Of a DNA stretch of 64,000 nt, positions 9,675 through 63,613 are shown piece after piece. Every line of letters starts with the position of its first letter. Position 1 is the stretch's first letter. Source of the stretch: a virus (taxonomy: Duplodnaviria > Caudoviricetes); the IMG/VR virus record IMGVR_UViG_2931369376_000001, positions 16,994 to 80,993 of that record; one strand, written 5' to 3'. The position numbers were made by a program, and so were the translations under genes. A model generated the notes under the pieces. That model was given only the letters and a program-made list of their open reading frames with translations. It was not told where the DNA came from and searched no databases.

Positions 9675-11225
9675 TTATGCGACGTCGGCGAACATGTCGG
9701 CGGCTTTACTCAGGGTTGCTTCGGCGCGCGAGGTCTGCGCCACCTCTGTCTCTTCGTTGCACGCGACATAGTTCACGTCCTCGAGGAAGGCCATGCATAG
9801 CGTGTCAAAAAGGTCCGGGGACGACAGGCCGTCAGCGGCCATGCTCTCTTTGCTGGCGATCTTGTACCGGCCCAGCTCGTCGAAGGCGTAGGGCAGGCGT
9901 GAGCCCTGGTCTATGAGGTCGCGCTTATATTTGGTCGACAGCTTGACCACGCCGTCCTTGATCGCCTCGGTAGCGTGCACGGTGCACTGCGCCCGCTGGT
10001 TGATGAAGCGCTTACGGTTCTCGTTGGAGTGCGGGCGGGCGCCCCATTGGACACCCTGGATGATCATGCTGCCCTCTTGCAGCTCCTGAAGCCGGCGCAG
10101 GAACTGCATGCCCATGGCACTGACGTCGATAACGATGGTGACGTTCGGGAAACGCATTGCGTAGTCACGCAGCTTGACCGCCAGCGGCGTCCAGTCCTCG
10201 GATGCGCTGTAGATTGGGATGTCGACAACCTCAACCCGTCGGCGCCGCTCGTTCGCCATGCGATCGCCCTTGCCGCTGACGCGCAGATGGGTGGCCACCG
10301 TCTTGTCTCGCCCAACGCCCGCGGCGACGTCGACAACGATGAGGTGCCCCCACTCTTCTCCCGGAAGGATTGGACTGGCCAGGCCCATGGCCCGCTCGAT
10401 CATGACCGAACTCAACAGGTACTTGCTGAGGTTGGTCGGGAACATCCCCCGCACTTTGATCTGATATTCCGGCTCGTCGACGCCGCCGTACTGGAGCCGC
10501 TTCTCCTTGATGAACTTGATGCCCACAATCGGGCTTTCTTCGGAGTTGAACACCAGCGGCACCCACGAGCCGCCGCGGTGGATCGACTGGCCGTGGTGGG
10601 TTTCCCAGAAGAACCCGGTCGAGCGCGTGGGCTGGCTGGCCATGATGAAGCGGTTGCGCTCATCAGTCATCGCGCCGCCAATCACGCCAAAGTTTTCGTC
10701 AGGGATCCCCGACGCTTCGTCCGCCAGCCAAAGCAGGTAGTCGGCGTGGGTACCGGCCAGGTTCTCAGGCGAGCCGCGCGGTGCGGTGCGGGTGGTGACG
10801 TACCAGGTGGCGCTGTGCCCGGCCACGTAGACTTTCTCGGCCTGAATCACAACGTAGTCAGCGATCCAGGCATGCGGGCCTTTGCGAATCTCGGCCAGCA
10901 TGGTGGTGATTTCTTTCCACACACCCTCTCGCACCGTCTTGAGTTTCGGCGCGGTCACGTAGGTGTTGGAGTTGAAGTAGCACAGCAGGTGCCAAAGGCA
11001 GATGACGCCGAAGCTCCGGGTTTTACCAGTACCGTGGCCAGACGATACCGATACCCGGCAGCCATAGGCTGAGGACTCATCAAAAAGCTCTTGCTGTTGC
11101 GGTGTGACATCCATCAAACACGCTTCAACCGCAAAGCCGTACAGGTTGAAGGCGTAACGCTCAATGAATTCGGGCCACCTCGGGTCTGCCTCTAATCGCA
11201 GACTCTTGGGTTTCGGCTTGGCCAT
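9675..11225 (-). CDS. pacB: Terminase large subunit (PacB-like)
   Basis: Walker A SGHGTGKT, Walker B LWLADEAS, nuclease motifs VVDVAAG, VIDV and SPDLFD. Confidence 0.9.
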   Translation of the reverse strand: MAKPKPKSLRLEADPRWPEFIERYAFNLYGFAVEACLMDVTPQQQELFDESSAYGCRVSVSSGHGTGKTRSFGVICLWHLLCYFNSNTYVTAPKLKTVREGVWKEITTMLAEIRKGPHAWIADYVVIQAEKVYVAGHSATWYVTTRTAPRGSPENLAGTHADYLLWLADEASGIPDENFGVIGGAMTDERNRFIMASQPTRSTGFFWETHHGQSIHRGGSWVPLVFNSEESPIVGIKFIKEKRLQYGGVDEPEYQIKVRGMFPTNLSKYLLSSVMIERAMGLASPILPGEEWGHLIVVDVAAGVGRDKTVATHLRVSGKGDRMANERRRRVEVVDIPIYSASEDWTPLAVKLRDYAMRFPNVTIVIDVSAMGMQFLRRLQELQEGSMIIQGVQWGARPHSNENRKRFINQRAQCTVHATEAIKDGVVKLSTKYKRDLIDQGSRLPYAFDELGRYKIASKESMAADGLSSPDLFDTLCMAFLEDVNYVACNEETEVAQTSRAEATLSKAADMFADVA

Positions 11226-11276
11226 AGGATCCTTAAACACAAAGGGGCCAGTTCCCCGGCCCCTATCACTCTACGG

Positions 11277-11999
11277 CTACGCCAATCGGACTTTGAGCGA
11301 CGGTTTGCATTCGTGCGTGGCGTTCAGCACGAAAGAATCCCAGTGGCCACCCGACGCCCAGCAACTGCTGCCCGTTGTTTGGGTGTCGCGGAAAAAGCCT
11401 TTGCGGAGTCCGCGGCCCGCGTGCAGCACCATGCCGCCGTCACCGCAGCAGGCCAGCCCTTCCCGCGCCACCTGAAAGCTCACCGCGGCCATGGCGTTGG
11501 CGTCCTCCATCAGCCACATCACGTCGTGCCCACAGAAGCCAGCCATGCGTTCAGGGTAGTGCTCGCTCGCAGCCATAAAGAGAACACCACGCCCGGAATA
11601 CTGCTCCTGCTGGTTTAGCCTGATGCTTCTGATGGTGATTCGCAGGTAGTCGAGCAGCCATGCGTGCGGGCCGACGATGTTCTTGGCCAGCTTGCCGTAT
11701 TGCTCACAGCAGCGAAGCATGTCGCCGAAGGGCACGGCGACCATCGTCAGGGAGTCGGGCCGGCACAGAAGGCGCCACAGCGCGATAGGCGCCAGCGGGC
11801 TGACTACCCCCATTTCCATTGGGTTCCGGTCAGAGGCAATCGACACCCGGCAGCCAGGCAGCCCCACGCACTCGAATGCCCGCGCCAGCCCCTTGTCCAC
11901 TTCTACCCCGCACACCTCCCGAGCGAAGTCGGCCAGGTTGTTGGCGTAGCGGCGGGCGAATGCAGGCCACCGCTCATCCTCTTGAATCAGGCGGTTCAT
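11277..11999 (-). CDS. Degenerate paralog of the terminase ATPase domain
   Basis: Collinear with TerL residues ~15-260 (RWPAFARRY vs RWPEFIERY; GPHAWLLDY vs GPHAWIADY; GFFRDT vs GFFWET). Walker A and Walker B are destroyed. Confidence 0.85.
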   Translation of the reverse strand: MNRLIQEDERWPAFARRYANNLADFAREVCGVEVDKGLARAFECVGLPGCRVSIASDRNPMEMGVVSPLAPIALWRLLCRPDSLTMVAVPFGDMLRCCEQYGKLAKNIVGPHAWLLDYLRITIRSIRLNQQEQYSGRGVLFMAASEHYPERMAGFCGHDVMWLMEDANAMAAVSFQVAREGLACCGDGGMVLHAGRGLRKGFFRDTQTTGSSCWASGGHWDSFVLNATHECKPSLKVRLA

Positions 12000-12595
12000 G
12001 ATGCGGACTCAGCGGACAGCTGCGCCGATTCCCGCTCGTGCTCAGCGATCAGCAAAGCCGCGGCCTTCTCGATCGCCCGCAGTCGTGTTTCTTGTTTCAT
12101 TGGCGCGTGCGGCCACGGCCACACCGTGGTGGCGTAATCCGGCACCAGCACCTGGAGAATGTAGCCGGCGGCGGCGCGCAGCAATTCGTCATTGCTGTAG
12201 CGCAGGTCGCGCTGCGGGTGATACCCCTTCACAACCAGCTGGCGCTGGCGCTCGCTCAGGATGGCGTTCTCGCTTGGGCCCGTCACCGGCATGGCTGGCC
12301 ACAGCGCCAGCGGCTGCTCCCAACCATTCGCAGCCCTTTGCGCCCACTCGCTCGGCTGCATGCGGGCGTATGGGCGGGTCACCGATATACCCTGATCCCG
12401 GCCCCGACGGACCAGGAGCCAGGCTTTAGGCTGCTGGGTTGCATGTTTGGACTGCGCCAGCGATTCCCACACCTGGTACGTCTTTTGTGTGTGGGCGTTC
12501 ACGTATTCGCCGGCGTCGGCGTTGTACGCCAGGTCACTGATGCCAGCATGCCGGCAGGACCGCTCAAAGTGTTCGCGACTGAAGAACAAGGTCAT
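11996..12595 (-). CDS. Phage hypothetical protein
   Basis: ATGA-coupled on both sides. C-terminal ERQRQ..KGY....D..Y...EL..AAAGY...WPW module is common in phage accessory proteins. Confidence 0.65.
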   Translation of the reverse strand: MTLFFSREHFERSCRHAGISDLAYNADAGEYVNAHTQKTYQVWESLAQSKHATQQPKAWLLVRRGRDQGISVTRPYARMQPSEWAQRAANGWEQPLALWPAMPVTGPSENAILSERQRQLVVKGYHPQRDLRYSNDELLRAAAGYILQVLVPDYATTVWPWPHAPMKQETRLRAIEKAAALLIAEHERESAQLSAESAS

Positions 12596-12831
12596 GACGG
12601 GCTCTCTGCCGAATTGGAAAACTGAATCGCCGTTGACGCTGGCATGGCCCCACAATCGTGGCCCCAGGCAGCCAGGCCGGTGTCCTGGAAGGCCCACCGG
12701 TCGCCCGGGAGCTGGTCGCGTTGTACGTGCTCGATCTCGCCCGCGGCATTGCACAACCACAGCTCGTCCCCAAGCTCCAGGTATACCGTCAGCGACTCGC
12801 CGGTCAGGCGATTGGTCACGATTTGGCTCAC
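12592..12831 (-). CDS. Hypothetical protein
   Basis: ATGA/GTGA-coupled member of the operon. Confidence 0.6.
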   Translation of the reverse strand: MSQIVTNRLTGESLTVYLELGDELWLCNAAGEIEHVQRDQLPGDRWAFQDTGLAAWGHDCGAMPASTAIQFSNSAESPS

Positions 12832-13319
12832 TTCATTTCCCCGGTCCTGCGATTGATCTCCGTTGGTTTCGTGAAAGCCCGGGAGAACCGGAACTCCTGG
12901 ATTACCTGGTTGAAATTGGTTTCCACCCGGTCGAAGTACTGGTTACCGTCGGCCATCAGCGCTTGCGCCAGCATGGCCGCGCCTACGCTGCGCCCCTCCA
13001 TCACGTAGGTGGCCAAGCACCGCACCAGGCGCTGTTCGGCATAGGTCCCGCTGAAGCCCGGCAGCAAGCGGCCTGTACCACGCACAGACGTCTCCAAATT
13101 AACTGGACGCGCATCTGCCGTCGGCGGCATGAAATAGAAACCACCGAGTCGCTTGGGCTCCAACCGCGCCAGCTGTCCGTCCTTGCCAAAAATGTGCATT
13201 CCGCACGCGGCCAGGGACTTGAAGATCAAGTTGGCCGTCTCCAGCCGGTATTGCTGGCGTGCGCTCAGCTTCAATGCGGCAGGCGCCGCCGGTACCGCAG
13301 TTGCTGTTTGCATGTGCAT
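12828..13319 (-). CDS. Hypothetical protein
   Basis: Coupled ORF with an AAGG-type RBS. Confidence 0.65.
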   Translation of the reverse strand: MHMQTATAVPAAPAALKLSARQQYRLETANLIFKSLAACGMHIFGKDGQLARLEPKRLGGFYFMPPTADARPVNLETSVRGTGRLLPGFSGTYAEQRLVRCLATYVMEGRSVGAAMLAQALMADGNQYFDRVETNFNQVIQEFRFSRAFTKPTEINRRTGEMK

Positions 13320-13322
13320 CCC

Positions 13323-13493
13323 TTAAATCTTGAGCCGCAGCTGGGCGCGGTCACATTCGTTTTCACCGTGTGGGAGCTTGTGGGCCTGGGCCTCACAGTT
13401 CCGGCGCCCGCAATCACGGCAGTAGGTGTAGGCGGGGGCGTTTCGTGGCCTCCGCCAGATGACGCGATCGCTTTCGCAAAAACGGCAGTCCAT
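13323..13493 (-). CDS. 56-aa zinc-ribbon protein (MDCRFCESDRVIW...YCRDCGRRN...)
   Basis: My translation. Two CxxC pairs and an AGGA RBS; below the ORF-track cutoff. Confidence 0.6.
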   Translation of the reverse strand: MDCRFCESDRVIWRRPRNAPAYTYCRDCGRRNCEAQAHKLPHGENECDRAQLRLKI

Positions 13494-13495
13494 CG

Positions 13496-13520
13496 GTCCT
13501 GTCCCGGTTTATCCCCGGAC
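13496..13520 (-). promoter_or_regulatory. Extended operator GTCCGGGGAT-N5-GGGACAGGAC
   Basis: 20 of 25 nt are identical to 35392-35416 in transcription orientation. Confidence 0.6.
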
Positions 13521-14815
13521 TACACGGGGCGTTGGTCGATCATCGCTTGCGCGTACACCCATCGGCGATTAGCAAAGGCGGTTAGGCTTTCGCCCTCTGC
13601 CTGCACCAGCGGACACGTCACTGCGAAATCATCGCGCAGGTCTACCAGGTACGCGTCCAGGGGTTTGCTGGTTACCTTGGGTGCCTGGGCCGGGTCGGAT
13701 TGCATTTGTGCGGATTTCTCCACGACGGTGGGCAACTTGACGCTATGGAAAGCCAGGCAGATAGCCTCAAACAAATCGGCGGAACTGTTTGCCCGCGGGC
13801 TCCCTTCAGGGGCGCCCACCCGATAGCGGGCCTCAGCCGTGAAATGGAATGGAAGCTTTGCCCCGAACAGCTCAAGCGCGGTTTCGTGGTTTCGGTAGGT
13901 GGGCCAGCAGTGTTTCAGCTTCAAGGCACCGTCTTTGATCGCCTCAGCAGCGCGAACACTGCATTCCGCGCGCCGGTTGAAGAACCGAGCGCCGCCAGCC
14001 TTCTTGGACAAGGGATTACCCATGGTCATGCCGTACCGCTTCACCGTTGGGCTCGACATCGCTTCCAGGCAGCGCAGAAACTCCAGGCCATGACCGAGTA
14101 CGTCTACCAAGATCGTGGCATCTGGCAGCGCCGACGCACACTGGAACAGGTGTTTGGCCTGTTGCTCGATGTCTCCAGGGTCGCCATGAATTGGGTAATC
14201 CACCACTTCAACAAACCGCTGGCAGCGCCCTACCTGCGTCGGGCTGTCATAGACCCTCATGTGGGCGGCTACCGTGAGGCCTGGGCGGATACCGCCACCC
14301 ACACGCACACCGAAGACATCCTTGGCCACAACGCCATCAGGGATAGGGCTGTCGATGTCCAGCGCTCGCTCGATGTCGGTGCCAGCGACGAGGTACATGC
14401 CGGGATCGCGTGGAGCTGCCTGGAGAATTGCAGGCACGTCGCTGTTGGTGGCCTGGGCGGGGGGCTGTACTTTCCCACTGACAACGATTTGCAGCGGGCC
14501 GGGCTTCTGGACACGGACCACATCCTTGATGGCGCTGGCCATAGGCGACGTAAGGAAGCTGTTCAGCAGCTGCCGCAGGCGGTAATGGGTCTGTGCATAG
14601 CGCGCCTTGCGGCCAAAGCCTTCCTGCACCGATACAGGCTTGCACCCTGGGATCTCAACCCAGTAGTGCACGCCCCGATCAGCGTTCAGTCTATCGGGCT
14701 CCGTCACTTTGACGCCCTGGGTGATGAGCCATTGCTTGAACACCGATACATTGCTGGCCAGCAGCAGGTCCGTGTCGTGCTTTTGTCCTTTCGCTTTTGC
14801 TGCGGTGTTCGACAT
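13520..14815 (-). CDS. Chimeric protein with a degenerate terminase nuclease-domain paralog
   Basis: 13748-14398 is collinear with the TerL C-terminal half (IERA..SPI, TVAAHMRV, VEVVD.PI, RFFNRRAECSVRAAEAIKDG, SADLFEAICLAF). The first catalytic Asp is lost. Confidence 0.85.
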   Translation of the reverse strand: MSNTAAKAKGQKHDTDLLLASNVSVFKQWLITQGVKVTEPDRLNADRGVHYWVEIPGCKPVSVQEGFGRKARYAQTHYRLRQLLNSFLTSPMASAIKDVVRVQKPGPLQIVVSGKVQPPAQATNSDVPAILQAAPRDPGMYLVAGTDIERALDIDSPIPDGVVAKDVFGVRVGGGIRPGLTVAAHMRVYDSPTQVGRCQRFVEVVDYPIHGDPGDIEQQAKHLFQCASALPDATILVDVLGHGLEFLRCLEAMSSPTVKRYGMTMGNPLSKKAGGARFFNRRAECSVRAAEAIKDGALKLKHCWPTYRNHETALELFGAKLPFHFTAEARYRVGAPEGSPRANSSADLFEAICLAFHSVKLPTVVEKSAQMQSDPAQAPKVTSKPLDAYLVDLRDDFAVTCPLVQAEGESLTAFANRRWVYAQAMIDQRPV

Positions 14816-15105
14816 CAGTCAGCTCCTAACGGGTTGGCCGTGAATGGCCTCAGGTTCTCGGGGCGCCCGCGGCGAATGGCCTTGGGACGCTTTTCAACGA
14901 CAGGCTTGAGCCACAGCTGTCCGGTTTTGAACAGGAACAGCTCCCACAGCCCAAGCTTGATTTTGGTAGCGCCCTTCTCGTACAGCCGCCAGGACTCGCG
15001 ACTCACGTAGATCAGCTCACCCGCGGCGGTTTCGCTCAGGTTCACGTTCTTGCGGGCCTTCCGGATGTTTTGCGGGGTCGGCTGGCGATCGGCGGCGAGC
15101 GTCAT
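14815..15105 (-). CDS. XRE/Cro-type HTH protein
   Basis: IRKARKNVNLSETAAGELIYVSRESWRLYEKG. Confidence 0.75.
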   Translation of the reverse strand: MTLAADRQPTPQNIRKARKNVNLSETAAGELIYVSRESWRLYEKGATKIKLGLWELFLFKTGQLWLKPVVEKRPKAIRRGRPENLRPFTANPLGAD

Positions 15106-16223
15106 GCGTCACCGCCGCTGTCCAGGGCATCGATCTCGGCCCGGCGCTTGGCCATGGCTTCACGCTGGGCGGTGGTTTTTTCCTGGCCGCTGGCATAAAT
15201 GGCGTCCAGTACGTCTTTACTCACGGTGGCCACGACTGGCTGCGCCGGCTCGATGTTCATATTGAAAATCCGCCCCAGCATTTCCAGGTATGGGCGTTGA
15301 TCGGCGATCCTCATTTTGAGCCCGTCCTTGGTTTCCTCCACGCCGCCGTACAGCGCCAGCGCGCCCGGGGAAAGGTGACGGGTATCCTTGAGCACCAGGT
15401 GCCCTACACCGTTGCCGTTGCACTCCGGGCAATCCGGGTGCGGGTCAAGGTTGGCATCAAAGCCCAGGCCGCCCAGCTCGTCGAACTCCGGGGCCTTGCG
15501 CTTTTCGCGCTTCGCTTCTGCTACGGCCTGGTCGTGGCGAGCCTTGCGCTCAGTCATCTGGTTCGGCGTCATCTGGTACCGAAAGTCCTTCCCATGGCAC
15601 CACCGGCAGCACTTATAGACGTATTCCACCAGCTCACGAGGGTCGGCCAGAGCGGCGCCGTAGACACGTTCAATCACGCGACCGGTGATTTCCTCTGTCT
15701 TGGCAAACAGCTCCGCGCGCTTGGCCAGCGTGTATGGGTGCTCCTTAACCTTCCTTAACAGGCGACTGGCCGCGGCAGCCGCCACAGCGTCCGATTTGCA
15801 CTCGAACCCCGCATCCAGATAGGACTGTGTGCCGTTTTGCGTGACCAGCCAAAGGTCGACGAACTTGGCCTGGCGCGCATCGAGATCGTGAAGACTCCCG
15901 GCCTGCAAGGCTTCCAGCTCTTTCGGCTTCAGCTTTACGGCTTTCTTGACGCGGGTGCTCCCTCCGGTTTTACGCGTCGGTTTTGCTGGCGCTGGGGTGG
16001 TGCTTGCAGTGGACGCCGGCTTTGCCGCGGGAGGTTTTGGTGCCTTTGTGGCTGGCTTTTTCGTAGCCTTTGGCGGTGCCGTTTTTACAACGCGACCGCT
16101 CTTCACCTTAACCACTGGCGGTTTAGGGGGAGTAAATACACGTCCAGGAGCCTTGTCCGGGGATTGTTTATCCTCGGCTGGCTTGGTCTGCGCTTCGGTA
16201 CTCTCGATCTTCTTCCGTGCCAC
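15102..16223 (-). CDS. Terminase small subunit with zinc-finger insertion (PacA-like)
   Basis: LDARQAKFVDLWL..NGTQSYLDAGF...AAASRLL; CCRWCHG and CPECNGNG; Pro/Lys-rich N-terminus. Confidence 0.8.
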   Translation of the reverse strand: MARKKIESTEAQTKPAEDKQSPDKAPGRVFTPPKPPVVKVKSGRVVKTAPPKATKKPATKAPKPPAAKPASTASTTPAPAKPTRKTGGSTRVKKAVKLKPKELEALQAGSLHDLDARQAKFVDLWLVTQNGTQSYLDAGFECKSDAVAAAAASRLLRKVKEHPYTLAKRAELFAKTEEITGRVIERVYGAALADPRELVEYVYKCCRWCHGKDFRYQMTPNQMTERKARHDQAVAEAKREKRKAPEFDELGGLGFDANLDPHPDCPECNGNGVGHLVLKDTRHLSPGALALYGGVEETKDGLKMRIADQRPYLEMLGRIFNMNIEPAQPVVATVSKDVLDAIYASGQEKTTAQREAMAKRRAEIDALDSGGDA

Positions 16224-50460: not shown

Positions 50461-53400
50461 CTACTTGTGCAGCACGATCAGCCGAGCATTTGCCGAGGTT
50501 TGCGCCAGCAGCGCGTTGTCCTGGAACGTCCCGCCGTCCAGCTTCTCAACGACGGCGCCGTGCGCGTCGAGCCAGGCCCGGAACTGTTCGGCTTTCTGGT
50601 CACTGCCAAAGAACACGCCCTCCCCCGCGATCGCCACCAATGTCCCGCCGCTGGCCAGCATCCCGTAGGCCCGCATGATGTGCTCTGCATCCTGACGTTT
50701 GGAGAATGGCGGGTTCATCAAAATCGCCCGGTAGGGCTCGTCCGGTGTGAAGGTCATGAAGTCGTGATCAACGGCTTTGTAGCCCTTGGCCGTGAGAATG
50801 TCGCGCAGTTGGCTGCTGATCTCTACCACGTCCACCTCCGCGCCTTCAGCCGCCGCCGCGTCGGCAAGGTTGCCATTGCCGGCGCTTGGCTCCAGGACCC
50901 GCATCCCTTTGCTGATTCGCGCCAACCGCGCCATGCGGTGAGCAACAGCCGCAGGCGTCGGAAAGAAGTCGATCCCGACCTTCTGGCCGATAATGGCGCG
51001 CTCAGCTTTTACCACCGCGCTTTCTTCTTGCTTCTCGGCCAAGTGCGGCAGTAACGCCCTGCAAGCGTCCTGCAACTGGGCGTCGTTGGTGATGCCCATA
51101 CGGTTCAGGCGTTCAATTCGTGCCAACATTTCGATGGGGTCTTTCAAATCCCACTGTTCTTTGACGGTACCCAGCACCTTGTAGGCCTTGCGGGTGATAG
51201 CAATGTCCCCGTCGTTCACCAATGACCAGCGCTCAGTCCGCTCCCCCAGCTTGCTAACAGCAGCAATCAGCCTGAAGTTGCCCTGGGCTGCTGTCCTGGC
51301 CAGCGTCTTCGCCGCGGTTTTGTACCGACTCGACCAGACCAGACGCGGCGGCATGGTGACGTGTTGGAGTACTTCGGCCTCAAATGGGCGCCCGCGTCGT
51401 TCCTGCTGCTCGGTGTAGGTCAAGCCACGCTCAGATTCGAACTTGGCCTGTACCAGCACTTTTTTGAGTTCCTGAAGTTGGGCCCGGCTGTTGAGGTTGG
51501 CCAGAGGCCCCGCGGCGCCGACTTCGATTGCATCGGCAATGCTGTTCAACGTTTTTCCGTCCGCCTCATCAGCTGCCGCCCGGGCATAGGCACTTGCCGC
51601 CATCCCCGCCCGACGCGATGTGTTGGTATTACGCTCGGCGTTCATGCCCTCCTGACCACTGGCGATCGCTTTGCTACCAGCCGCCCGCAGTTTTTCCACC
51701 TGGTTGGAAATGGCTTGCTGCTGACGCTCCAGGGCCACCCTGCGATCGCGGTCTTGCTTTTCGGCTTCCTGCTCAGGTGTAAGCACGACAGGCACGGGGG
51801 CCGCCTGGATGGCGCTGGTGTCGCCTGCCAGATGCTTCTCTCGGATGAAGTATCCACCGTTCATCCGCCAGGTGTACGGGTCAATGGCCTTGGCTTCGGC
51901 CAATGTCAGGTCGGTGCGGATGATCCCGCGCAAAACCTTATCCCGCTTGGTGGTGTACTCGATGATTTGGTGGGGGCCAACACCTGGTGCCGGCACTGGA
52001 CTGGAGTCTGGCGCCTGGGTCTGCTCAAGCGTGGCCGGTGGCGCTGCCTCTTCTGGCTCAGGGGCCCGCTGTTCAGTGGGCAGCGCCAACAACTCAGCAA
52101 TACGCTTTCCAGCACCACTACGGGCGCCGAACAGCGCAGCCATACCGCCAAGCTCGGCCACCTGACCCTCCATCAGCTTCAGGCCTGCCAAGGTTCCCGC
52201 CGGGTCGGCCTGGTAGGCCTGCTCAATCAGCTTGAGAGCCTTGGGTGATGCCCATTTTTTGGACTCGCGGGCCAACGTCGGTTGTTTGTTGCGGGTGTAT
52301 TCCGCAAGCATCCCGGTGTACTCCGCAACCCGGACCAGGTTCGCATTCACCGCCTGGGTCTTCTTCACCTCAGCCGGGCGCATGGCGTACAGGGTTGTTG
52401 CAATGCTGGCGCGGAACGTCTGAAGGCTCTTGTAGGCCTCCAGGCTGCGATCAGACTGGCGCTGTGAGGCGCTTGCCGCCTTGGCCATGTTGCGCCCGCT
52501 GCGCCCCGTCACAAACCACGAGGGATTGTTTGCGCCGGCGACCAGATCCCTGCGCATGTCTTCGGCGCTACGCCTGGCGTAGACCTCAACCAGCGCGGCA
52601 GCTTCAGCCTTCTGCTCAGCGGTATCCAGCGTGTGCTTCCTGCTCGCCAGGTCGCCCAGCAGGAGGCTGACATCGCTGGCCAGCTCTGCGTTGACATCGC
52701 GGCCCTTCCCCATGTGGGTGGCGCGGTTGTAATCGGCTTCGATTTCCTTGCTGATCAGCGGCACTTGTACCGAAACACCCGCTACCTCAACGGTTTGCGT
52801 AGCGGCTCTGGCTGGCGCGGCAGTTTCACGTTCATCCGCGCCAACACTGGACACTTTGTCACCGACGGAAACCACCTTCAGGATGGTGATATTGAGATCG
52901 TCGTCTGCTAAAGTGGACTCAACGGCGCCCGACTCACTGTCGAGCATCCCGTTGGCGGCGTTACCGGAGCGGGGCCCTTCCCCTGCATAATCCGGTGCGC
53001 CGTTTTCTTTTGCCTGCCAGGAATCCCGTCCTTCGTGGGACACGCTGTAGAAGAGATTCCCCTGGCCATCCTCGGCAACCGTCACGCCCGCCGTCACCAG
53101 CAGATCGTCGACCGTCACCTGTTTCTGAATGAAATAGAACGCCACCAGGCCATCCGTGCGGACCTTGTGCGGCGCCTGGCGACCGCCTGCGGTACCCGTC
53201 TCCAGAATTTCGCGGACATGCTCGATCAGCCTGGCCTTGAGTGGATCGGACTTCATGCCGTGTTTCGACTTCTTCCAGCCGGTACTGTTTACCCGTACAG
53301 GGCCAATTACCGAGGTGATCAGCTGCCCCTTGAGGTTTTCTTGATAGAACTGGCGCGCCTTCTCAAACGCTGCCTGGCCTACATCTGCCTCTGGCTTTGT

Positions 53401-53568
53401 GGGCTGGCCCAACATGGCGCGAATGGCCAGCCCACGGGTACTGGCGCGAACCTTATCGATCGGTGCCAGCGTGTCACCGGCCAACTTGGCCCGGATCGTC
53501 AAAAGCTCAGCACTCAGGCGCGCCCGCTCAATCGGCGAAATGACGCCTGGTTGGTTCAAATCAGTCAT
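50461..53568 (-). CDS. Polyvalent virion protein: LPD3-like domain plus C-terminal adenine methyltransferase (DarB-related)
   Basis: FFPTP, VLEPSAGNGNL and MNPPF motifs; LPD3-like GPVRVNSTGWKK..K..LIEHV.EIL..G. Start coupled to the stop at 53561. Confidence 0.8.
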   Translation of the reverse strand: MTDLNQPGVISPIERARLSAELLTIRAKLAGDTLAPIDKVRASTRGLAIRAMLGQPTKPEADVGQAAFEKARQFYQENLKGQLITSVIGPVRVNSTGWKKSKHGMKSDPLKARLIEHVREILETGTAGGRQAPHKVRTDGLVAFYFIQKQVTVDDLLVTAGVTVAEDGQGNLFYSVSHEGRDSWQAKENGAPDYAGEGPRSGNAANGMLDSESGAVESTLADDDLNITILKVVSVGDKVSSVGADERETAAPARAATQTVEVAGVSVQVPLISKEIEADYNRATHMGKGRDVNAELASDVSLLLGDLASRKHTLDTAEQKAEAAALVEVYARRSAEDMRRDLVAGANNPSWFVTGRSGRNMAKAASASQRQSDRSLEAYKSLQTFRASIATTLYAMRPAEVKKTQAVNANLVRVAEYTGMLAEYTRNKQPTLARESKKWASPKALKLIEQAYQADPAGTLAGLKLMEGQVAELGGMAALFGARSGAGKRIAELLALPTEQRAPEPEEAAPPATLEQTQAPDSSPVPAPGVGPHQIIEYTTKRDKVLRGIIRTDLTLAEAKAIDPYTWRMNGGYFIREKHLAGDTSAIQAAPVPVVLTPEQEAEKQDRDRRVALERQQQAISNQVEKLRAAGSKAIASGQEGMNAERNTNTSRRAGMAASAYARAAADEADGKTLNSIADAIEVGAAGPLANLNSRAQLQELKKVLVQAKFESERGLTYTEQQERRGRPFEAEVLQHVTMPPRLVWSSRYKTAAKTLARTAAQGNFRLIAAVSKLGERTERWSLVNDGDIAITRKAYKVLGTVKEQWDLKDPIEMLARIERLNRMGITNDAQLQDACRALLPHLAEKQEESAVVKAERAIIGQKVGIDFFPTPAAVAHRMARLARISKGMRVLEPSAGNGNLADAAAAEGAEVDVVEISSQLRDILTAKGYKAVDHDFMTFTPDEPYRAILMNPPFSKRQDAEHIMRAYGMLASGGTLVAIAGEGVFFGSDQKAEQFRAWLDAHGAVVEKLDGGTFQDNALLAQTSANARLIVLHK

Positions 53569-55885
53569 CAAAGCCCCCAAAAATCGAATCCAGCAGTGCG
53601 GTGTTGGCCAGCGCCTTCTCGAAGGTCTTACCGTCACGCAACGTCTTGAATAGCTCGTCGAACGCAGCGCCAATGCGCAGGCGCTCTTCTCCCTCCGGGT
53701 ATGGCTTGAACGGCATGCCCTGTTCGGGGAAGTAGTGGTGTTTGTTGTCAGCCAGGCAGCTCAGGTAATCGTTCTGGCGATCCATAGCCGCCAGCTTGTC
53801 CTCCAGGTACGACTGGAACGCCCGAGCGGCCAACTCAGGGGTGGAGGACCAGTATTTGCCCTCCTTGAAGTTGTCCAGCGCCGAAGCTTCGGCCATGTAG
53901 CGTGAAACACCCTTGCCCGTGCTCAGCCGAACTTCAGTCGTTCCCTCAGGCGAAAAGTACGCCGCGGCCAGGGTTCGCCAGTTCTTTTTGTACTTGAGCG
54001 ATCGGCTGTCGTTGCGCTTGCCAAAATAGGCGTCCACCGCCAGCACCGCGGCTTCAGCGCTGCCCGCCGCTTTGACGCGCCGGGCAATCTCGTGACTGGG
54101 ATTGTCGAAGTTCAGCCGTGCATTACCGAAGGAGCGCGGCGTGAACTTGATTGTTTCGGGCAGCCGCTGGTCCCCCTCGGTCAGCGCCTGCTTGAGCCCA
54201 ATAAACGCATTCCGGATTGGCCCCTCGGGTACCAGCTCCGGTTTTTCCACGCCAAACTCATCAGCCGCGCCAGCCTCGCCGCGCAGCAGGCCCGGCAGGA
54301 TGTTGTCCATTGCGTGAAAGTGCTCGTGCCCCAGGCCACCGCCACCGTTCATCTTGGTGATGTTGATCGCGCGTAGCACAGGCTCGTACTGGGCGGTCGC
54401 TGCTCCCTTCCCGCCCTTGCCCCGGGCGCCGAATGCCAGGCCGAGACGCCCGCCAAAGCCGAGGTTCTCTTCGCTGATACCCAGGACGTCGGCCATATCC
54501 ATCATGGCGCCGGCGGACTGCTCTACGTGCCACTTGGAGCTGTCGCGGTCATCCAGTACCCAGTTGCCGGACTGCACGGCCCGGAAACCGCACAACTGCT
54601 GTAGGGATCGGGTGGAATTGACCGCGACCGGGCGACCGCCCTTGCGGTCGAAACGGTCCACTACCTTCAGCGCGAACGTCTGGCGCTTCTTGGTCGGGAC
54701 CTTGGGCGCGCCCTGGATTACATCGCCCCCCTTCTTCTCGGCCCAATCCCATTCCTTCGGATCTCCGGATAAGGCATTGGACACATGCCTGGCGAACGTT
54801 TCGGAGCCCGAGCGGCTACGGAACATCAGCGCCTTGACGAACTTGTCCCCCATCGACATCCACGCGCGATTTACTGGCGAGTTCAGGTTGCGCGCCTTGG
54901 CGACGCCCATGATTTCTGCCCGCTCCTGGTACAGCGCTGTGCGTGCCGCGGTCAGCTGCTCGATGGCCGGCTTGTTCTTCTCCAGGAGGCTTGTCCAGGC
55001 CTTCATGGCTTCCCGGTAGGCCTTGTCAGCTTCACGCACCGCCTGCTCATGTTGTGGCTCGACTTTCCAGCCACGACTGACACGGTTGTCGAGGTCGCGC
55101 TGCGCCTTATTGTGGAGAGCGCTGGCCTCATACATGGCGTTTTGGAGGCCGTTTTGCTCTGCCTCGATGTTGCGGACCTGTTCCGTCAGGCCACGGGCAC
55201 GGTCGGTGATGCTCTCGTACCGGTCTGCCTCATCAGCGTCGAGCTGGGAGCCCAGCAGCTCGTCGCGAATCTCGTCCAGTGTCGCTACCACCTCTTTGGA
55301 GGTCAGGCACTGCTCCAGGCGCGTGCGTAGCGTCTCCAGGCCCAACACATAGGCCCGGCGGGCCGTAGGGCTGTCCTCGGTGGGCTCTTTGGCGATAGAG
55401 GCGTACACACGGTCCATCAGGAACGCCGCGGCAGGTTCTGTCCCGCCCTGCTTCATCGCCTCCCAATCGACAACTCCGAACAAGTTCGACTTGACCACCA
55501 GCGCCCGCGCTTCTCGTGGCGTTTCCTCAATGGCGTCGAAGTCGATATCGGTACCGCGCAGCATGCGGCCCTCGGCCCGGGCTTTGCGGATGGCGCCCGC
55601 GGCTTCTTCCTTGCGGCTACCAGGGATGTAGCCGACATCGGCATAGCGGTAGTTGGGGCTGTTGGGATCGTCGCTCAGACCGTCGTCTACGGCCTGCTCA
55701 GCGGCGGTAACTGCATCCACTTGTGGGGCAGGTAGTACCTGGCCGGTCAGCCGCCGGCGGATATCCAGGGCTTCAGCACTGGCGCGAACCTTTTCCAATG
55801 CTTTGAGGGCTCCACTGATCAGCAACTGGCGCAGGGCCAACAGTCGTGAACTCAGGCGGGCTTTCTCGATGGGGGAAATTTGCAT
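53561..55885 (-). CDS. Polyvalent virion protein with LPD1-like domain
   Basis: GFRAVQSGNWV..LGLAFGARG..A.YEP..INIT..NG.G.LGHE.FHAMD (HExxH) and YWSS.PELAARAF. Confidence 0.75.
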   Translation of the reverse strand: MQISPIEKARLSSRLLALRQLLISGALKALEKVRASAEALDIRRRLTGQVLPAPQVDAVTAAEQAVDDGLSDDPNSPNYRYADVGYIPGSRKEEAAGAIRKARAEGRMLRGTDIDFDAIEETPREARALVVKSNLFGVVDWEAMKQGGTEPAAAFLMDRVYASIAKEPTEDSPTARRAYVLGLETLRTRLEQCLTSKEVVATLDEIRDELLGSQLDADEADRYESITDRARGLTEQVRNIEAEQNGLQNAMYEASALHNKAQRDLDNRVSRGWKVEPQHEQAVREADKAYREAMKAWTSLLEKNKPAIEQLTAARTALYQERAEIMGVAKARNLNSPVNRAWMSMGDKFVKALMFRSRSGSETFARHVSNALSGDPKEWDWAEKKGGDVIQGAPKVPTKKRQTFALKVVDRFDRKGGRPVAVNSTRSLQQLCGFRAVQSGNWVLDDRDSSKWHVEQSAGAMMDMADVLGISEENLGFGGRLGLAFGARGKGGKGAATAQYEPVLRAINITKMNGGGGLGHEHFHAMDNILPGLLRGEAGAADEFGVEKPELVPEGPIRNAFIGLKQALTEGDQRLPETIKFTPRSFGNARLNFDNPSHEIARRVKAAGSAEAAVLAVDAYFGKRNDSRSLKYKKNWRTLAAAYFSPEGTTEVRLSTGKGVSRYMAEASALDNFKEGKYWSSTPELAARAFQSYLEDKLAAMDRQNDYLSCLADNKHHYFPEQGMPFKPYPEGEERLRIGAAFDELFKTLRDGKTFEKALANTALLDSIFGGFDD

Positions 55886-59905: not shown

Positions 59906-62900
59906 TCAGAAGGCCTCCGCCGTGGCTTTCAGTGCGTGCTGGCTGTAGGCCTCAGCTGCATCAGCGAACAAGCCGCTAAGCTCGCCCTCGCCGAAGGCCG
60001 CATAGATGCGCTCCAGTTCCTTCATGACGCCATCCGGGTCGCCCAGGTCGGCGGAGCCGTCAATGATGCTGTCCAGGTAAGCTTTGGCAGTCTGCAAGGC
60101 GGTTTCCTCCTCGTCAGGGTTCGCCTGGTCAACGGCTTGTGCCGCTGGCTGGCTGAAGAGGTCATTTTGCTCGATGGCGAACACACCTTCACCAAATTCC
60201 TTTTCCAGCTCGGCATTGGCAGCCTTCACGATATCGGCAAAGCGGGCGGGCTCATCACCAAACAGGCCGGCGGTTTGCTTACGCCGGGCTTCCGACTCAA
60301 CGAACTGAGCCATGGCTTTGAATGCAGCACCGAGGCGCTTGGCGCTGCGGTTGTTCTTGCTGATGAACATCGCCATCGCAGCAACCGACGGATCAACATC
60401 ACCGAACATGTCACCTTGGCGAAGGAACTCGTCCAGGCCCAGGCCGCTTTCTTTGGCTTTGCGCAGCACGTTGGTCGCGCTGATGATCGCGTTAACCGCC
60501 TCTTGGTCCAGGGATAGCTCCAGGGAGTCCGTGACCTTCTCGCCGGCGGCCTCTGCGCCAGCCAGGTCCAATTCCTTCGCTCGCATGAAATCAGGCGCCG
60601 CCATGTTCAGCGCGCTGACGATGTTGGCAATCTCCGGCTTGCTGGAATCAGCGGTTAGCTCCAGCAGACGATCATCCGAATAGGCGCCAGCGAAGAGGGC
60701 GGCCTGCACCCGACTGATCAAACTGGCCGTAGGGCGACCGTCAGTGGTCATGTATTGCGCCGCTTCAGCATCACCCAGGCTTTGCAGGAACGCACTCACA
60801 AAGTCGCGGTTCCCGGCGCTGGTAAGGTCACCGTCGACCAATTTCGCCATCATGGCCGCGTCAAGGCGTTTGGCATCGCTGCGAGCCTTCTCGGTGGCGG
60901 TCATGGCCAGCTTGTCGTCTTGGTTGGCCTCTACGGCGAACTCCGCGCGGTCAACGGAGCTAACGCGCACACGGACCAGGACCGGGGCTTTCATGCTCTC
61001 GATCCTCGAGGCGCTGACCTGGAAGTACTCCGCATTTTCCAGCAGCCACTGGCGGTATTCCTCGGCCTGGCCGATGCGATACGCCTCACGGATGGCCATG
61101 GCGCGACCGTTGCCGGACTCCACTACACGGTCTTTACCAACGATAGGCGCGCCGCTGTCGGCCCGGTTCGTGCGCCCCAGGCTGTCCGGGTCAAGATTGC
61201 GGGCCGTCTTCTGCACCCAGGCCTGCGACGTCGCACGCGCTCGGTCACGCGGTTGTAGTTCGCTCGGGTAGTCCGGGTTGGCCGTACCGTCGGATTCATG
61301 GCTGATGATCAGGTTCTTCGCGTCAATCACCTTGAAGCCGGTGACCACCTTGGTTCCTTTGGCAGTTTTTACGGTGTTCTCGCGCCCCTCGGGCTCGATC
61401 TCGCCCAAGTCGTCATCAACGGCTGTGTTTTCCTGCTGCGCAGCGCTGGCGGCCTCCTGGGCGCCTTCCTCGCTAGACTTGTCCAGCTCACGCAGGCCGA
61501 AACCGTCCACCTTGGCTTTCGCGGCGCGCACCAGGTCACGACCTACACCGGCTAGAATCTCGTCTTTGGTACCACTTCCGGCCAGGCTGAAGCCGGCTTT
61601 GAGCACCAGCTCGCGCAGAGCATCAACGTCGTCGACCGCATCCAGCACCCCCAGTGCGCCCATGACGTTACCCGCCACCAGCGCCGCGGTCAGCTTCTCC
61701 AGGTCGGTGCGATTATCACGCAAGGCCGGGTCATCACCCAGCATATCGGGCTGGGCATCGCCTGTTGCCGCTTGGAAGATGGTTTGTGTTGCCGCCTCAA
61801 TCGAGACGCCAGCCTGGTACTGAGCATCCGCGAGCCCTTGCTGCGCCTCGACAACGCCAGCCGCATCGCCGTAGTCGACACCCAGCAAGTCAGCCACCCC
61901 CTGGGTCACCCCTTCATCCCAAGTGGTGCGATCGATCTGCGACACAGGTTGATTGTCCTGGTTCTCTTCGCCGGCAGATTGCTGCGCTTCCAAGCTGCGC
62001 AACATTTCGGACACGTTCGCCAGGTAGTTGCTGGCGTTGACTGAGGCCATAATCCCACCGCTATCGAGCGCAGCCTGCGTTTCGGCAATAGCGTTGGTCA
62101 GCCACTCCATGGCGCTCTTCTTGGTACCACCCTTGCCGACGATCGAACGACCGGATTTTTTGCCCGTGCGCACAGCGTCGAGACTCGCCCTGTAATCGGC
62201 CAACTGCCCGGTGAGGTATTCAATGGTGAAGCCCTTCCGGTCGCCGCTCGCCACCTGCGCCATGAACTCTTCTTGCGTCAGCGGTGCGCCACCCAAAGCC
62301 TTGATTTTCTCTACTACCTCAGCCGCTTTCGCCAGGTACTGCTGAGCGTAGTCATTTGCCTTCGCGGGAACGTCCTCAGCGTCGGTATCCGGTTCTGCAA
62401 CTGAAACCGGCAACTTGGCGACCTTGCTCTGCAACTCCGCGAGCTGCTCATCAAGCCCCTGCAACTCAGCCGCTTTGTTCTGCACCTCGGCTTTCAGGGC
62501 TTCGATTTTCGCCGCGCTCTCGGCGCTGGCGCCGCTGGCCTTGATGAACTTGGCGCTGTTCTTCTCAACCAGGGTCATGATGCGGCGGGCCACCTGGCGC
62601 GGGCTGATGTCTTGCCCACGCTCGGGCGCCACCACCAGGGTGATGTCCTTCTTGTTCAGCACCCATTTCCAGCTGATCAGCTCGTCGGTAGACGTGAGCC
62701 GGTTGGGCGTGCTGTCTGGATTGTGAAAGAACACCGAAACGCTCTGGCCATCGCTCATTGTGAACAGCATGGCCACCTGGGTAGTGCCTCGGTTCTTGAA
62801 GGGCTTACTGACCTCCACGCCGTCGACCTTGACGGTTGCGGCGGCGGCCTGCATCACGCGCAACAGCTGGCTGGCCTTGCGGTCAAACTGCGCATACTCG

Positions 62901-63613
62901 ATGACCATCGCGTCCAGCATGTTCCCGTCACTCAGCAACTCAGTGATATCGGCCATGCTCGCACTGTCCAGCAACAGCTTTTCAGGGTCGCCGCGGCGCA
63001 GGCCATACAGCACCTCGCCCAACGTCATGCCAACGGGCAGGTTGTCTTCGCCCCAGGCCACAACAGCGCCGGTCATAGGTTTCACCTCATCTTGGATCAA
63101 GTCGGCGGCCTCAAGGGGCCGGGTAAGGTCGCCTGACTTGAGCCAGGCCTTGAACTGCTTCACAGAGCACGTCACGTAGCTGCCAAGCCCTTTCCAGCCC
63201 TGTTCGTAGCTGTTGCGGTACGCCAGGATGGCGCTGTCGACGTCATGAAAGCCCATCACCGCCTTGTGCTCATCGAAAGAGCGATCCTTCTTCACCTGGT
63301 TCACCACAACCACCAGCGTGCTTTCCGGGACCGGCCCCACGTACACATCGAAGGCGTCACCGTCGGCGCCGTTGTAGCCGTTGAGGTAGCCGTAGTTCGC
63401 CATGCAGACAATCGACCAAGGCTCTCCATCCGCCTTGCCGGTGCGCGGCGTGAACATGGGGGTTTCGATAGTGATGGCCAGGCCGTGAAGGCGCAGGCTG
63501 CCTTTCTGATAGTTGCCTGCCCGTACTTGGGCGGCAGTTGGCGCACGCTTATTGCCCAGGCCAAACGCACCGCTATGCGCGGCGGCGGTCAACGTTGCAT
63601 AGGGATCAGTCAT
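59906..63613 (-). CDS. darA: DarA-like fusion: InPase-like + DarA-N + ddrB-ParB + DarA-C
   Basis: YGY..G..GADGD..DVYVG..DEHK.V.G (InPase-like); SDGQSVSVFFHNPD..WKWVLNKKDIT..APE.G.D (DarA-N); LQPRDR.R..GAPIV..VESGNGR (ddrB-ParB); helical DarA-C end. Confidence 0.85.
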   Translation of the reverse strand: MTDPYATLTAAAHSGAFGLGNKRAPTAAQVRAGNYQKGSLRLHGLAITIETPMFTPRTGKADGEPWSIVCMANYGYLNGYNGADGDAFDVYVGPVPESTLVVVVNQVKKDRSFDEHKAVMGFHDVDSAILAYRNSYEQGWKGLGSYVTCSVKQFKAWLKSGDLTRPLEAADLIQDEVKPMTGAVVAWGEDNLPVGMTLGEVLYGLRRGDPEKLLLDSASMADITELLSDGNMLDAMVIEYAQFDRKASQLLRVMQAAAATVKVDGVEVSKPFKNRGTTQVAMLFTMSDGQSVSVFFHNPDSTPNRLTSTDELISWKWVLNKKDITLVVAPERGQDISPRQVARRIMTLVEKNSAKFIKASGASAESAAKIEALKAEVQNKAAELQGLDEQLAELQSKVAKLPVSVAEPDTDAEDVPAKANDYAQQYLAKAAEVVEKIKALGGAPLTQEEFMAQVASGDRKGFTIEYLTGQLADYRASLDAVRTGKKSGRSIVGKGGTKKSAMEWLTNAIAETQAALDSGGIMASVNASNYLANVSEMLRSLEAQQSAGEENQDNQPVSQIDRTTWDEGVTQGVADLLGVDYGDAAGVVEAQQGLADAQYQAGVSIEAATQTIFQAATGDAQPDMLGDDPALRDNRTDLEKLTAALVAGNVMGALGVLDAVDDVDALRELVLKAGFSLAGSGTKDEILAGVGRDLVRAAKAKVDGFGLRELDKSSEEGAQEAASAAQQENTAVDDDLGEIEPEGRENTVKTAKGTKVVTGFKVIDAKNLIISHESDGTANPDYPSELQPRDRARATSQAWVQKTARNLDPDSLGRTNRADSGAPIVGKDRVVESGNGRAMAIREAYRIGQAEEYRQWLLENAEYFQVSASRIESMKAPVLVRVRVSSVDRAEFAVEANQDDKLAMTATEKARSDAKRLDAAMMAKLVDGDLTSAGNRDFVSAFLQSLGDAEAAQYMTTDGRPTASLISRVQAALFAGAYSDDRLLELTADSSKPEIANIVSALNMAAPDFMRAKELDLAGAEAAGEKVTDSLELSLDQEAVNAIISATNVLRKAKESGLGLDEFLRQGDMFGDVDPSVAAMAMFISKNNRSAKRLGAAFKAMAQFVESEARRKQTAGLFGDEPARFADIVKAANAELEKEFGEGVFAIEQNDLFSQPAAQAVDQANPDEEETALQTAKAYLDSIIDGSADLGDPDGVMKELERIYAAFGEGELSGLFADAAEAYSQHALKATAEAF

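Follow-up and report, generated by a model that had tools for sequence, protein, structure and literature searches.

The window analyzed here, a stretch of 64,000 nucleotides, comes from a circular plasmid of Pseudomonas fluorescens DR133, CP048608.1 (80,993 bp), which genes for a portal protein, a tail sheath, a DarB-like protein, and a methyltransferase identify as a P1-like myovirus phage-plasmid. On the minus strand, the small terminase gene terS is followed by seven open reading frames (g96, pNuc431, zn56, g163, g79, g199, and pA) and then by the large terminase gene terL. The features of this gene set, in order of coordinate, are as follows.

9675 to 11225, minus strand: terL, a PacB-type large terminase of 516 amino acids (aa) from an ATG at 11225 (phrog_2, E = 4.6e-33; 34 to 36% identical to P1 PacB).
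11243 to 11264, minus strand: a GC-rich hairpin and then a T-run, terminator- or attenuator-like, between the pA stop and the terL Shine-Dalgarno sequence.
11277 to 11999, minus strand: pA (GZ982_30070), 240 aa, a pseudo-ATPase that is a stand-alone paralog of the ATPase domain of TerL (BLASTP, profile comparison, and fold model).
11277 to 11773, minus strand: the hypervariable, recombining 3' two-thirds of the pA gene (nucleotide identity to locus L005).
11499 to 11516, minus strand: a Walker B remnant, W-L-M-E-D-A, aligned with L-A-D-E of TerL.
11796 to 11834, minus strand: a degenerate P-loop region, S-D-R-N-P-M-E-M-G-V-V-S-P, aligned in the place of the TerL Walker A motif.
11996 to 12595, minus strand: g199, a conserved 199-aa protein whose stop overlaps the pA start (ATGA).
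12592 to 12831, minus strand: g79, a small acidic protein with a C-terminal half that is hypervariable in locus comparison.
12828 to 13319, minus strand: g163, a basic protein of ~163 aa, present in most, not all, members of the clade.
13323 to 13493, minus strand: zn56, a Cys-rich, zinc-ribbon-like 56-aa ORF conserved in all loci.
13520 to 14815, minus strand: pNuc431, 431 aa, composed (from alignments) of an N-terminal domain, a TerL nuclease-like domain, and a conserved C-terminal tail.
13691 to 14413, minus strand: the TerL nuclease-like domain of pNuc431 (aa 135 to 375), 33% identical to TerL 268 to 517 (E = 3e-32).
14815 to 15105, minus strand: g96, a small 96-aa helix-turn-helix protein with a weak MqsA/XRE-like match, conserved in all loci.
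15102 to 16223, minus strand: terS, a small terminase (Terminase_2) in a 373-aa form (PF03592, E = 1.4e-11; phrog_51).

Every gene of the module, terL included, is deposited in CP048608.1 as a “hypothetical protein,” pA under the locus tag GZ982_30070. The deposited terS starts downstream and encodes 268 aa, against 360 to 375 aa in relatives, and these homologs back the long 373-aa form. The ORF zn56 is unannotated in this record; tblastn finds it in 13 of 13 related loci (48 to 98% identity; dN/dS, 0.05 to 0.35), and it is likely a real gene missed by annotation. The pI of g79 is 4.2 to 6.1, and an atlas feature search with g199 was uninformative (scores of ≤0.84). Elsewhere in the window, very large proteins encoded at 50461 to 55885 and 59906 to 63613 on the minus strand have DNA-methyltransferase and DarB-like antirestriction matches, which suggests a P1-type Dar system of virion-carried antirestriction proteins.

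The first-pass annotation had proposed that pA is a collinear copy of the TerL ATPase domain with its Walker motifs erased. BLASTP of pA against the window's own TerL (queried as the ORF at 9675 to 11240, in which the coding sequence from the ATG spans 9675 to 11225) returned a single collinear alignment, pA 5 to 239 with TerL 16 to 243, at 31% identity (E = 3e-23), and all five motif pairs originally quoted for collinearity are found in it. When 31 pA-family members were compared with 29 TerL N-domains using hhalign, the two profiles matched over 228 columns (probability, 100%; E = 1.1e-50), a similarity that at the level of sequence profiles is far above chance. The C-terminal RNase H-like nuclease domain is absent from pA. 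The protein, proposed to end where the ATPase domain ends, stops at the equivalent of TerL residue ~243, some 20 residues before the TerL ATPase-nuclease linker. Pfam and NCBIfam gave no match for pA, its distant relatives, or the window's TerL, and none of the pA profile, g199, and TerL matched a PDB entry in sequence searches.

An AlphaFold2 model of pA built on a 135-row alignment has a pLDDT of 91.8; it supersedes a model built on only 12 close homologs, which was unusable (pLDDT, 45.7). The top PDB matches of this model are the ATPase domains of the P74-26 TerL and T4 gp17 (TM score, 0.54 to 0.67; probability, 1.00). Since the alignment contains TerLs, this fold assignment is not independent of sequence homology, and the model confirms that homology without extending it. 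Sequence and model both assign pA the predicted ASCE ATPase-domain fold of its homolog, the PacB-type TerL. The pairwise and profile homology, the TerL-ATPase-like model, and the family-wide loss of the P-loop described below support the view of pA as a disabled, stand-alone TerL ATPase-domain paralog adjoining terL.

The motifs with which a terminase handles nucleotide are degraded in pA. The TerL Walker A sequence, S-G-H-G-T-G-K-T, corresponds in pA to a longer loop with a 3-residue insertion and no Lys-Thr; the loss of Walker A reported earlier is thus borne out by the segment found at the aligned position (11796 to 11834). For Walker B, the change from L-A-D-E to L-M-E-D is as first described, but “erased” was the wrong word: the motif is permuted and degenerate rather than blank, with an invariant Glu in the Asp position and D, E, N, G, or S in the catalytic-Glu position among close relatives. 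In the alignment, the Q-motif and the S-Q-P coupling motif are also missing. None of the stand-alone pA-family members carries G-x4-G-K-[ST], and their P-loop segment varies in both length and sequence. Among full-length TerL relatives, all those free of a P-loop intein retain G-H-G-T-G-K-[ST]; G72, K73, E175, and D304 are invariant in an alignment of 53 TerLs, and in the window's TerL both Walker motifs and the nuclease Asp residues are intact. Two kinds of exceptional relatives were seen alongside these. P0052, P0057, and P0074 are PacB-type TerLs of 640 to 870 aa with a Hint or LAGLIDADG intein placed exactly in the Walker A P-loop (the check covered three of the eight matches in this size range), and P0090 is a 268-aa Walker-A-less relative that lies within another TerL clade, on a 2.5-kb contig.

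Judged by sequence, the P-loop, Q-motif, catalytic Glu, and coupling motif are all lost from pA. We infer that the protein cannot bind or hydrolyze ATP in the canonical way and therefore must act by binding. One could suppose that pA is still an NTPase, using a noncanonical site, given that an acidic E-D pair survives at the Walker B strand of the window's copy. We consider this exceedingly improbable: there is neither a P-loop Lys/Thr nor a Q-motif, the second of the two acidic positions is occupied by D, E, N, G, or S, and the P-loop segment is itself inconstant across the family.

Despite these losses, pA belongs to a family of genes maintained by selection. A word-indexed search found 12 clusters (236 to 240 aa, 53 to 100% identity). 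An exhaustive profile search extended this to 161 relatives, among them dozens of 50%-identity clusters of 185 to 262 aa without a P-loop; the full-length relatives (~500 aa) carry G-H-G-T-G-K-[ST]. The dN/dS of the whole pA gene is 0.18 to 0.32, compared with 0.07 to 0.09 for TerL, and by segment it is 0.16 for aa 1 to 100 and 0.28 for aa 101 to 240, at a dS of about 0.6 to 0.8. These values indicate purifying selection; no gene-wide positive selection on pA was seen (dN/dS of <0.6 in all segments, medians of 0.16 to 0.28). Among close members 72 columns are invariant, 47 of them in the N-terminal 100 aa, and the N-terminal helices of TerL are kept almost unaltered. In amino acids, pA evolves ~3 to 5 times faster than TerL.

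A duplication origin and the loss of all catalytic motifs would also be expected of a functionless remnant, a pseudogene-like ORF left by duplication of terL. That reading is very improbable in view of a reading frame that is intact in every locus, the segment dN/dS values at the dS just given, the dozens of 50%-identity clusters that stay within one length class, and the 72 invariant columns; on selection and conservation, we reject pseudogene status.

The position of pA is as constant as its frame. It had been placed directly upstream of terL, and its stop is indeed 51 nt upstream of the terL ATG at 11225; the same adjacency is kept in 16 of 16 related elements examined (14 loci, plasmid pKF715C of P. 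putida, and genome G001), in which TerL identity ranges from 98% down to 66%. The genome scan and the metagenome scan for related loci yielded one locus each. In all 16 elements the order is terS, helix-turn-helix gene, pNuc-family gene, small variable genes, g199, pA, and terL. The overlap of the g199 stop with the pA start is kept in all loci and suggests translational coupling. In the nearest outgroup TerL in which the module was not found, that of a Pseudomonas genome (L028; G351:C243:83500-94500) with a 55%-identical PacB-type TerL, there was no recognizable terS, pA, pNuc, or g199 within 8 kb upstream on the same strand. The only match to pA in phage Rb1 was the large terminase, and no pA was found there.

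The hairpin between pA and terL is present in 11 of 11 loci compared, with compensatory changes at 3 pairs, and its structure is conserved across divergent sequences. A conserved motif, C-C-G-T-A-G-A-G-T-G, lies just upstream of it at 11266 to 11276. The hairpin and this motif (11243 to 11276) may form an attenuator or other regulatory site controlling terL expression. The suggestion that pA is made just before TerL remains plausible from the gene order, though a conserved terminator-like hairpin separates the two genes.

A second TerL derivative lies in the same module. In the nuclease-like domain of pNuc431, the position of the first catalytic Asp (the invariant D304 of TerL) is Arg in 13 of 13 pNuc-family members aligned. 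The sister group of this domain is the set of cognate TerL C-domains (SH-aLRT, 97), and a branch with a support of 90 separates pA, together with the cognate TerL N-domains, from the rest of its tree; both trees point to an origin of the two pseudo-domains by duplication of the lineage's own terL. In three deeper lineages (L008, 6043 to 6957; L010, 5862 to 6506; L013, 6153 to 7007), the pNuc-family protein consists of the N-domain and C-tail only, so pA does not depend on the nuclease-like domain. The pNuc N-domain and the C-terminal tail (L-R-D-D-F-A ... R-R-W-x-Y-A-Q-A-M) are universal in the family, and the TerL nuclease-like middle domain is limited to the subclade of the window and L011. 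The N-terminal 135 aa of pNuc431 were considered as a shrunken ATPase domain on account of a stretch, G-C-K-P-V-S-V-Q-E-G-F-G-R-K, that resembles the TerL P-loop region; this candidate was rejected (hhalign probability, 0.2%).

Relative to the PacB proteins of P1, P7, and D6 and to the window's TerL, pA has the ATPase-domain fold and collinear sequence in common but no Walker A, Q-motif, catalytic Glu, coupling motif, or nuclease domain; it is 240 aa long against about 500 to 520 aa, with a rate of evolution several times higher. The best structural matches of its model, T4 gp17 (3CPE and 2O0H) and the TerL of Thermus phage P74-26 (4ZNI/4ZNL), share 11 to 14% sequence identity with pA and are active enzymes with bound nucleotide. 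Truncated large terminases have been mentioned in published work, although only in passing: phage CBB (vB_PcaM_CBB) encodes an incomplete second gp17-like protein, CBB_274, beside its large terminase, and a similar truncated large terminase in other Rak2-like phages and in Sinorhizobium phages phiM12 and phiN3 was called unusual, with no function proposed (Buttimer et al. 2017, PMC5259590). Like pA, these copies are stand-alone, N-domain-only versions of TerL adjoining a full terL, and there is structural similarity between the pA model and the 235-aa CBB protein (TM score, 0.56 to 0.57). Unlike pA, which comes from its own lineage's PacB-type terminase and lies within a conserved multigene terS-terL module that includes a nuclease-like TerL derivative, the jumbo-phage copies derive from T4 gp17-type terminases. 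The tree that places pA with the PacB-type TerL of its own lineage argues for an origin separate from that of the jumbo-phage copies, to which the likeness is known from structure only. A literature search turned up no specific account of a decoy terminase or of an inactive paralog of the enzyme.

A further dead PacB N-domain paralog occurs in E. coli P1-like phage-plasmids (MH422554.1, 16015 to 16761 [L025]; ON470617.2, 40348 to 41094 [L024]), as part of an ORF of 368 to 376 aa. It resembles pA in having a PacB-type ATPase domain whose Walker A (P-H-G-I-G-E-T) and Walker B (I-N-S) are both degenerate and in lacking a nuclease domain, but it differs in lying far from pacAB, in carrying an extra, unrelated C-terminal domain of about 90 aa, and in being optional among P1-like phages. 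The E. coli paralog nests with P1-type PacB, and a single clade uniting it with the Pseudomonas pA family is rejected (AU test, P = 0.0066), so it arose independently of pA.

On this evidence from sequence comparison, pA arose by duplication of terL within this phage lineage, and we tentatively favor, as plausible rather than probable, a role as a binding-only, noncatalytic TerL mimic that would act stoichiometrically in terminase assembly. It would occupy, or hand over, the site used by the TerL ATPase domain on TerS, TerL, or the portal, and could thereby time or limit pac cleavage and motor assembly; its variable C-terminal two-thirds would then be a surface that is free of, or faces away from, conserved partners. 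What leads us to this reading is the fixed place of the gene in the terS-to-terL operon, the apparent translational coupling to g199, and the preservation of the TerL N-terminal helices. In the lambda and T4 terminases, it is the N-terminal region of the large subunit that contacts the small terminase. Extending that TerS contact to the N terminus of PacB-type enzymes is, however, an analogy borrowed from lambda and T4, which weighs against the assembly role, and the adjacency of pA and terL may be a mere result of origin by tandem duplication.

A further difficulty for the assembly role comes from the pattern of variation within the module. Nucleotide identity to the closest relative (L005) is 90 to 99% across the module except in two patches, 12521 to 12800, where it is about 60%, and 11183 to 11773, where it is 49 to 83% (49 to 79% inside the pA gene). 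Mean amino acid distances among 10 close elements are 0.075 for TerL, 0.20 for TerS, 0.20 for the N-terminal part of pA, 0.38 for its C-terminal part, 0.43 for the nuclease-like domain, and 0.60 for the C-terminal half of g79, the most variable segment of the module. The C-terminal two-thirds of pA is swapped by recombination among otherwise near-identical phage-plasmids: its alleles differ by up to 0.5 to 0.65 between elements at a TerL distance of ≤0.10, and elsewhere they are nearly identical between more distant backbones. In a mirror-tree comparison across 10 loci, no co-varying partner of this part was found among the module genes (Spearman rho of ≤0.29), and its distances correlate only with those of the N-terminal part of pA. 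Such swapping, independent of TerS, TerL, g199, and the other module genes, together with a rate ~3 to 5 times that of TerL, counts against an assembly factor and is seen more typically in genes engaged in conflict than in the core parts of a machine. So does the presence in the same module of a second hypervariable gene, g79, which is a second recombinant patch (12521 to 12831) with the profile of a conflict gene.

One conflict in which pA could take part is that between related elements: as a dominant-negative piece of TerL, it would poison the terminases of relatives or satellites infecting the same cell and leave the resident TerL unharmed. The diversity of pA alleles and their recombination would suit such a weapon, and dead subunits are expected to poison ring ATPases such as the ASCE ring motors. 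We nevertheless regard this as quite improbable. TerL is 90 to 98% identical among elements with very different pA alleles, so an allele could hardly tell its own TerL from a foreign one, and there is no evidence of satellites.

Conflict with the host offers another explanation, under which pA, perhaps jointly with the dead nuclease-like domain, would act as a mimic of TerL for host sensors of the terminase fold (Avs1-3-type STAND NTPases) or would shield monomeric TerL from them. Abortive infection would then be blunted without risk to the active enzyme. Avs1-3 sense TerL by direct binding, and their apparent targets are monomers (PMC13581612), a mode of sensing with which such evasion would fit. 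The hypervariable C-terminal two-thirds, with deep allelic lineages (p-distance, 0.5 to 0.65) shuffled among backbones of nearly uniform TerL, is in keeping with immune evasion, as are the evolutionary rates of the two TerL-derived pseudo-domains, which are among the highest of any segment in the module. The trait is also recurrent, having arisen independently as dead PacB-type copies in E. coli P1-like phages, and truncated TerL copies are present in jumbo phages. Moreover, with pA upstream of terL and a terminator-like hairpin between them, pA could be made earlier than TerL or in excess of it.

Other observations make immune evasion rather doubtful. Antidefense genes are usually optional, but pA is fixed and syntenic inside the packaging operon of every member of the clade. 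Structural work on Avs3 and TerL reportedly shows that what Avs3 reads are the active sites of the ATPase and the nuclease, the very features lost here. TerL is nearly invariant, and one would expect a decoy of it to keep its likeness instead of diversifying. Finally, the literature yielded no terminase decoy, and any sensor or host partner is putative. The more specific proposal that the two dead, fast-diversifying pieces, pA and the nuclease-like domain of pNuc431, are both mimics that intercept or blind Avs1-3-type receptors of the TerL fold is in our judgment unlikely.

Few phage enzymes are as conserved or as well studied as the large terminases, which are also a main target of pattern-recognition immunity in bacteria. 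Here, selection has maintained dead copies of the TerL ATPase domain, which are fixed throughout a clade of Pseudomonas phage-plasmids and make up a family for which there is no Pfam or NCBIfam model. This points to a hitherto unrecognized, nonenzymatic job for the terminase fold, in the regulation of motor assembly or in host-virus conflict. The system is testable, given that the cultured hosts P. fluorescens DR133 and P. putida KF715 (plasmid pKF715C) carry pA. Were the decoy explanation true, pA and the nuclease-like domain of pNuc431 would be a virus-encoded decoy of a conserved viral “pattern,” and the strategy would be a general one, given the similar copies of independent origin in P1-like phages and of probably independent origin in jumbo phages.
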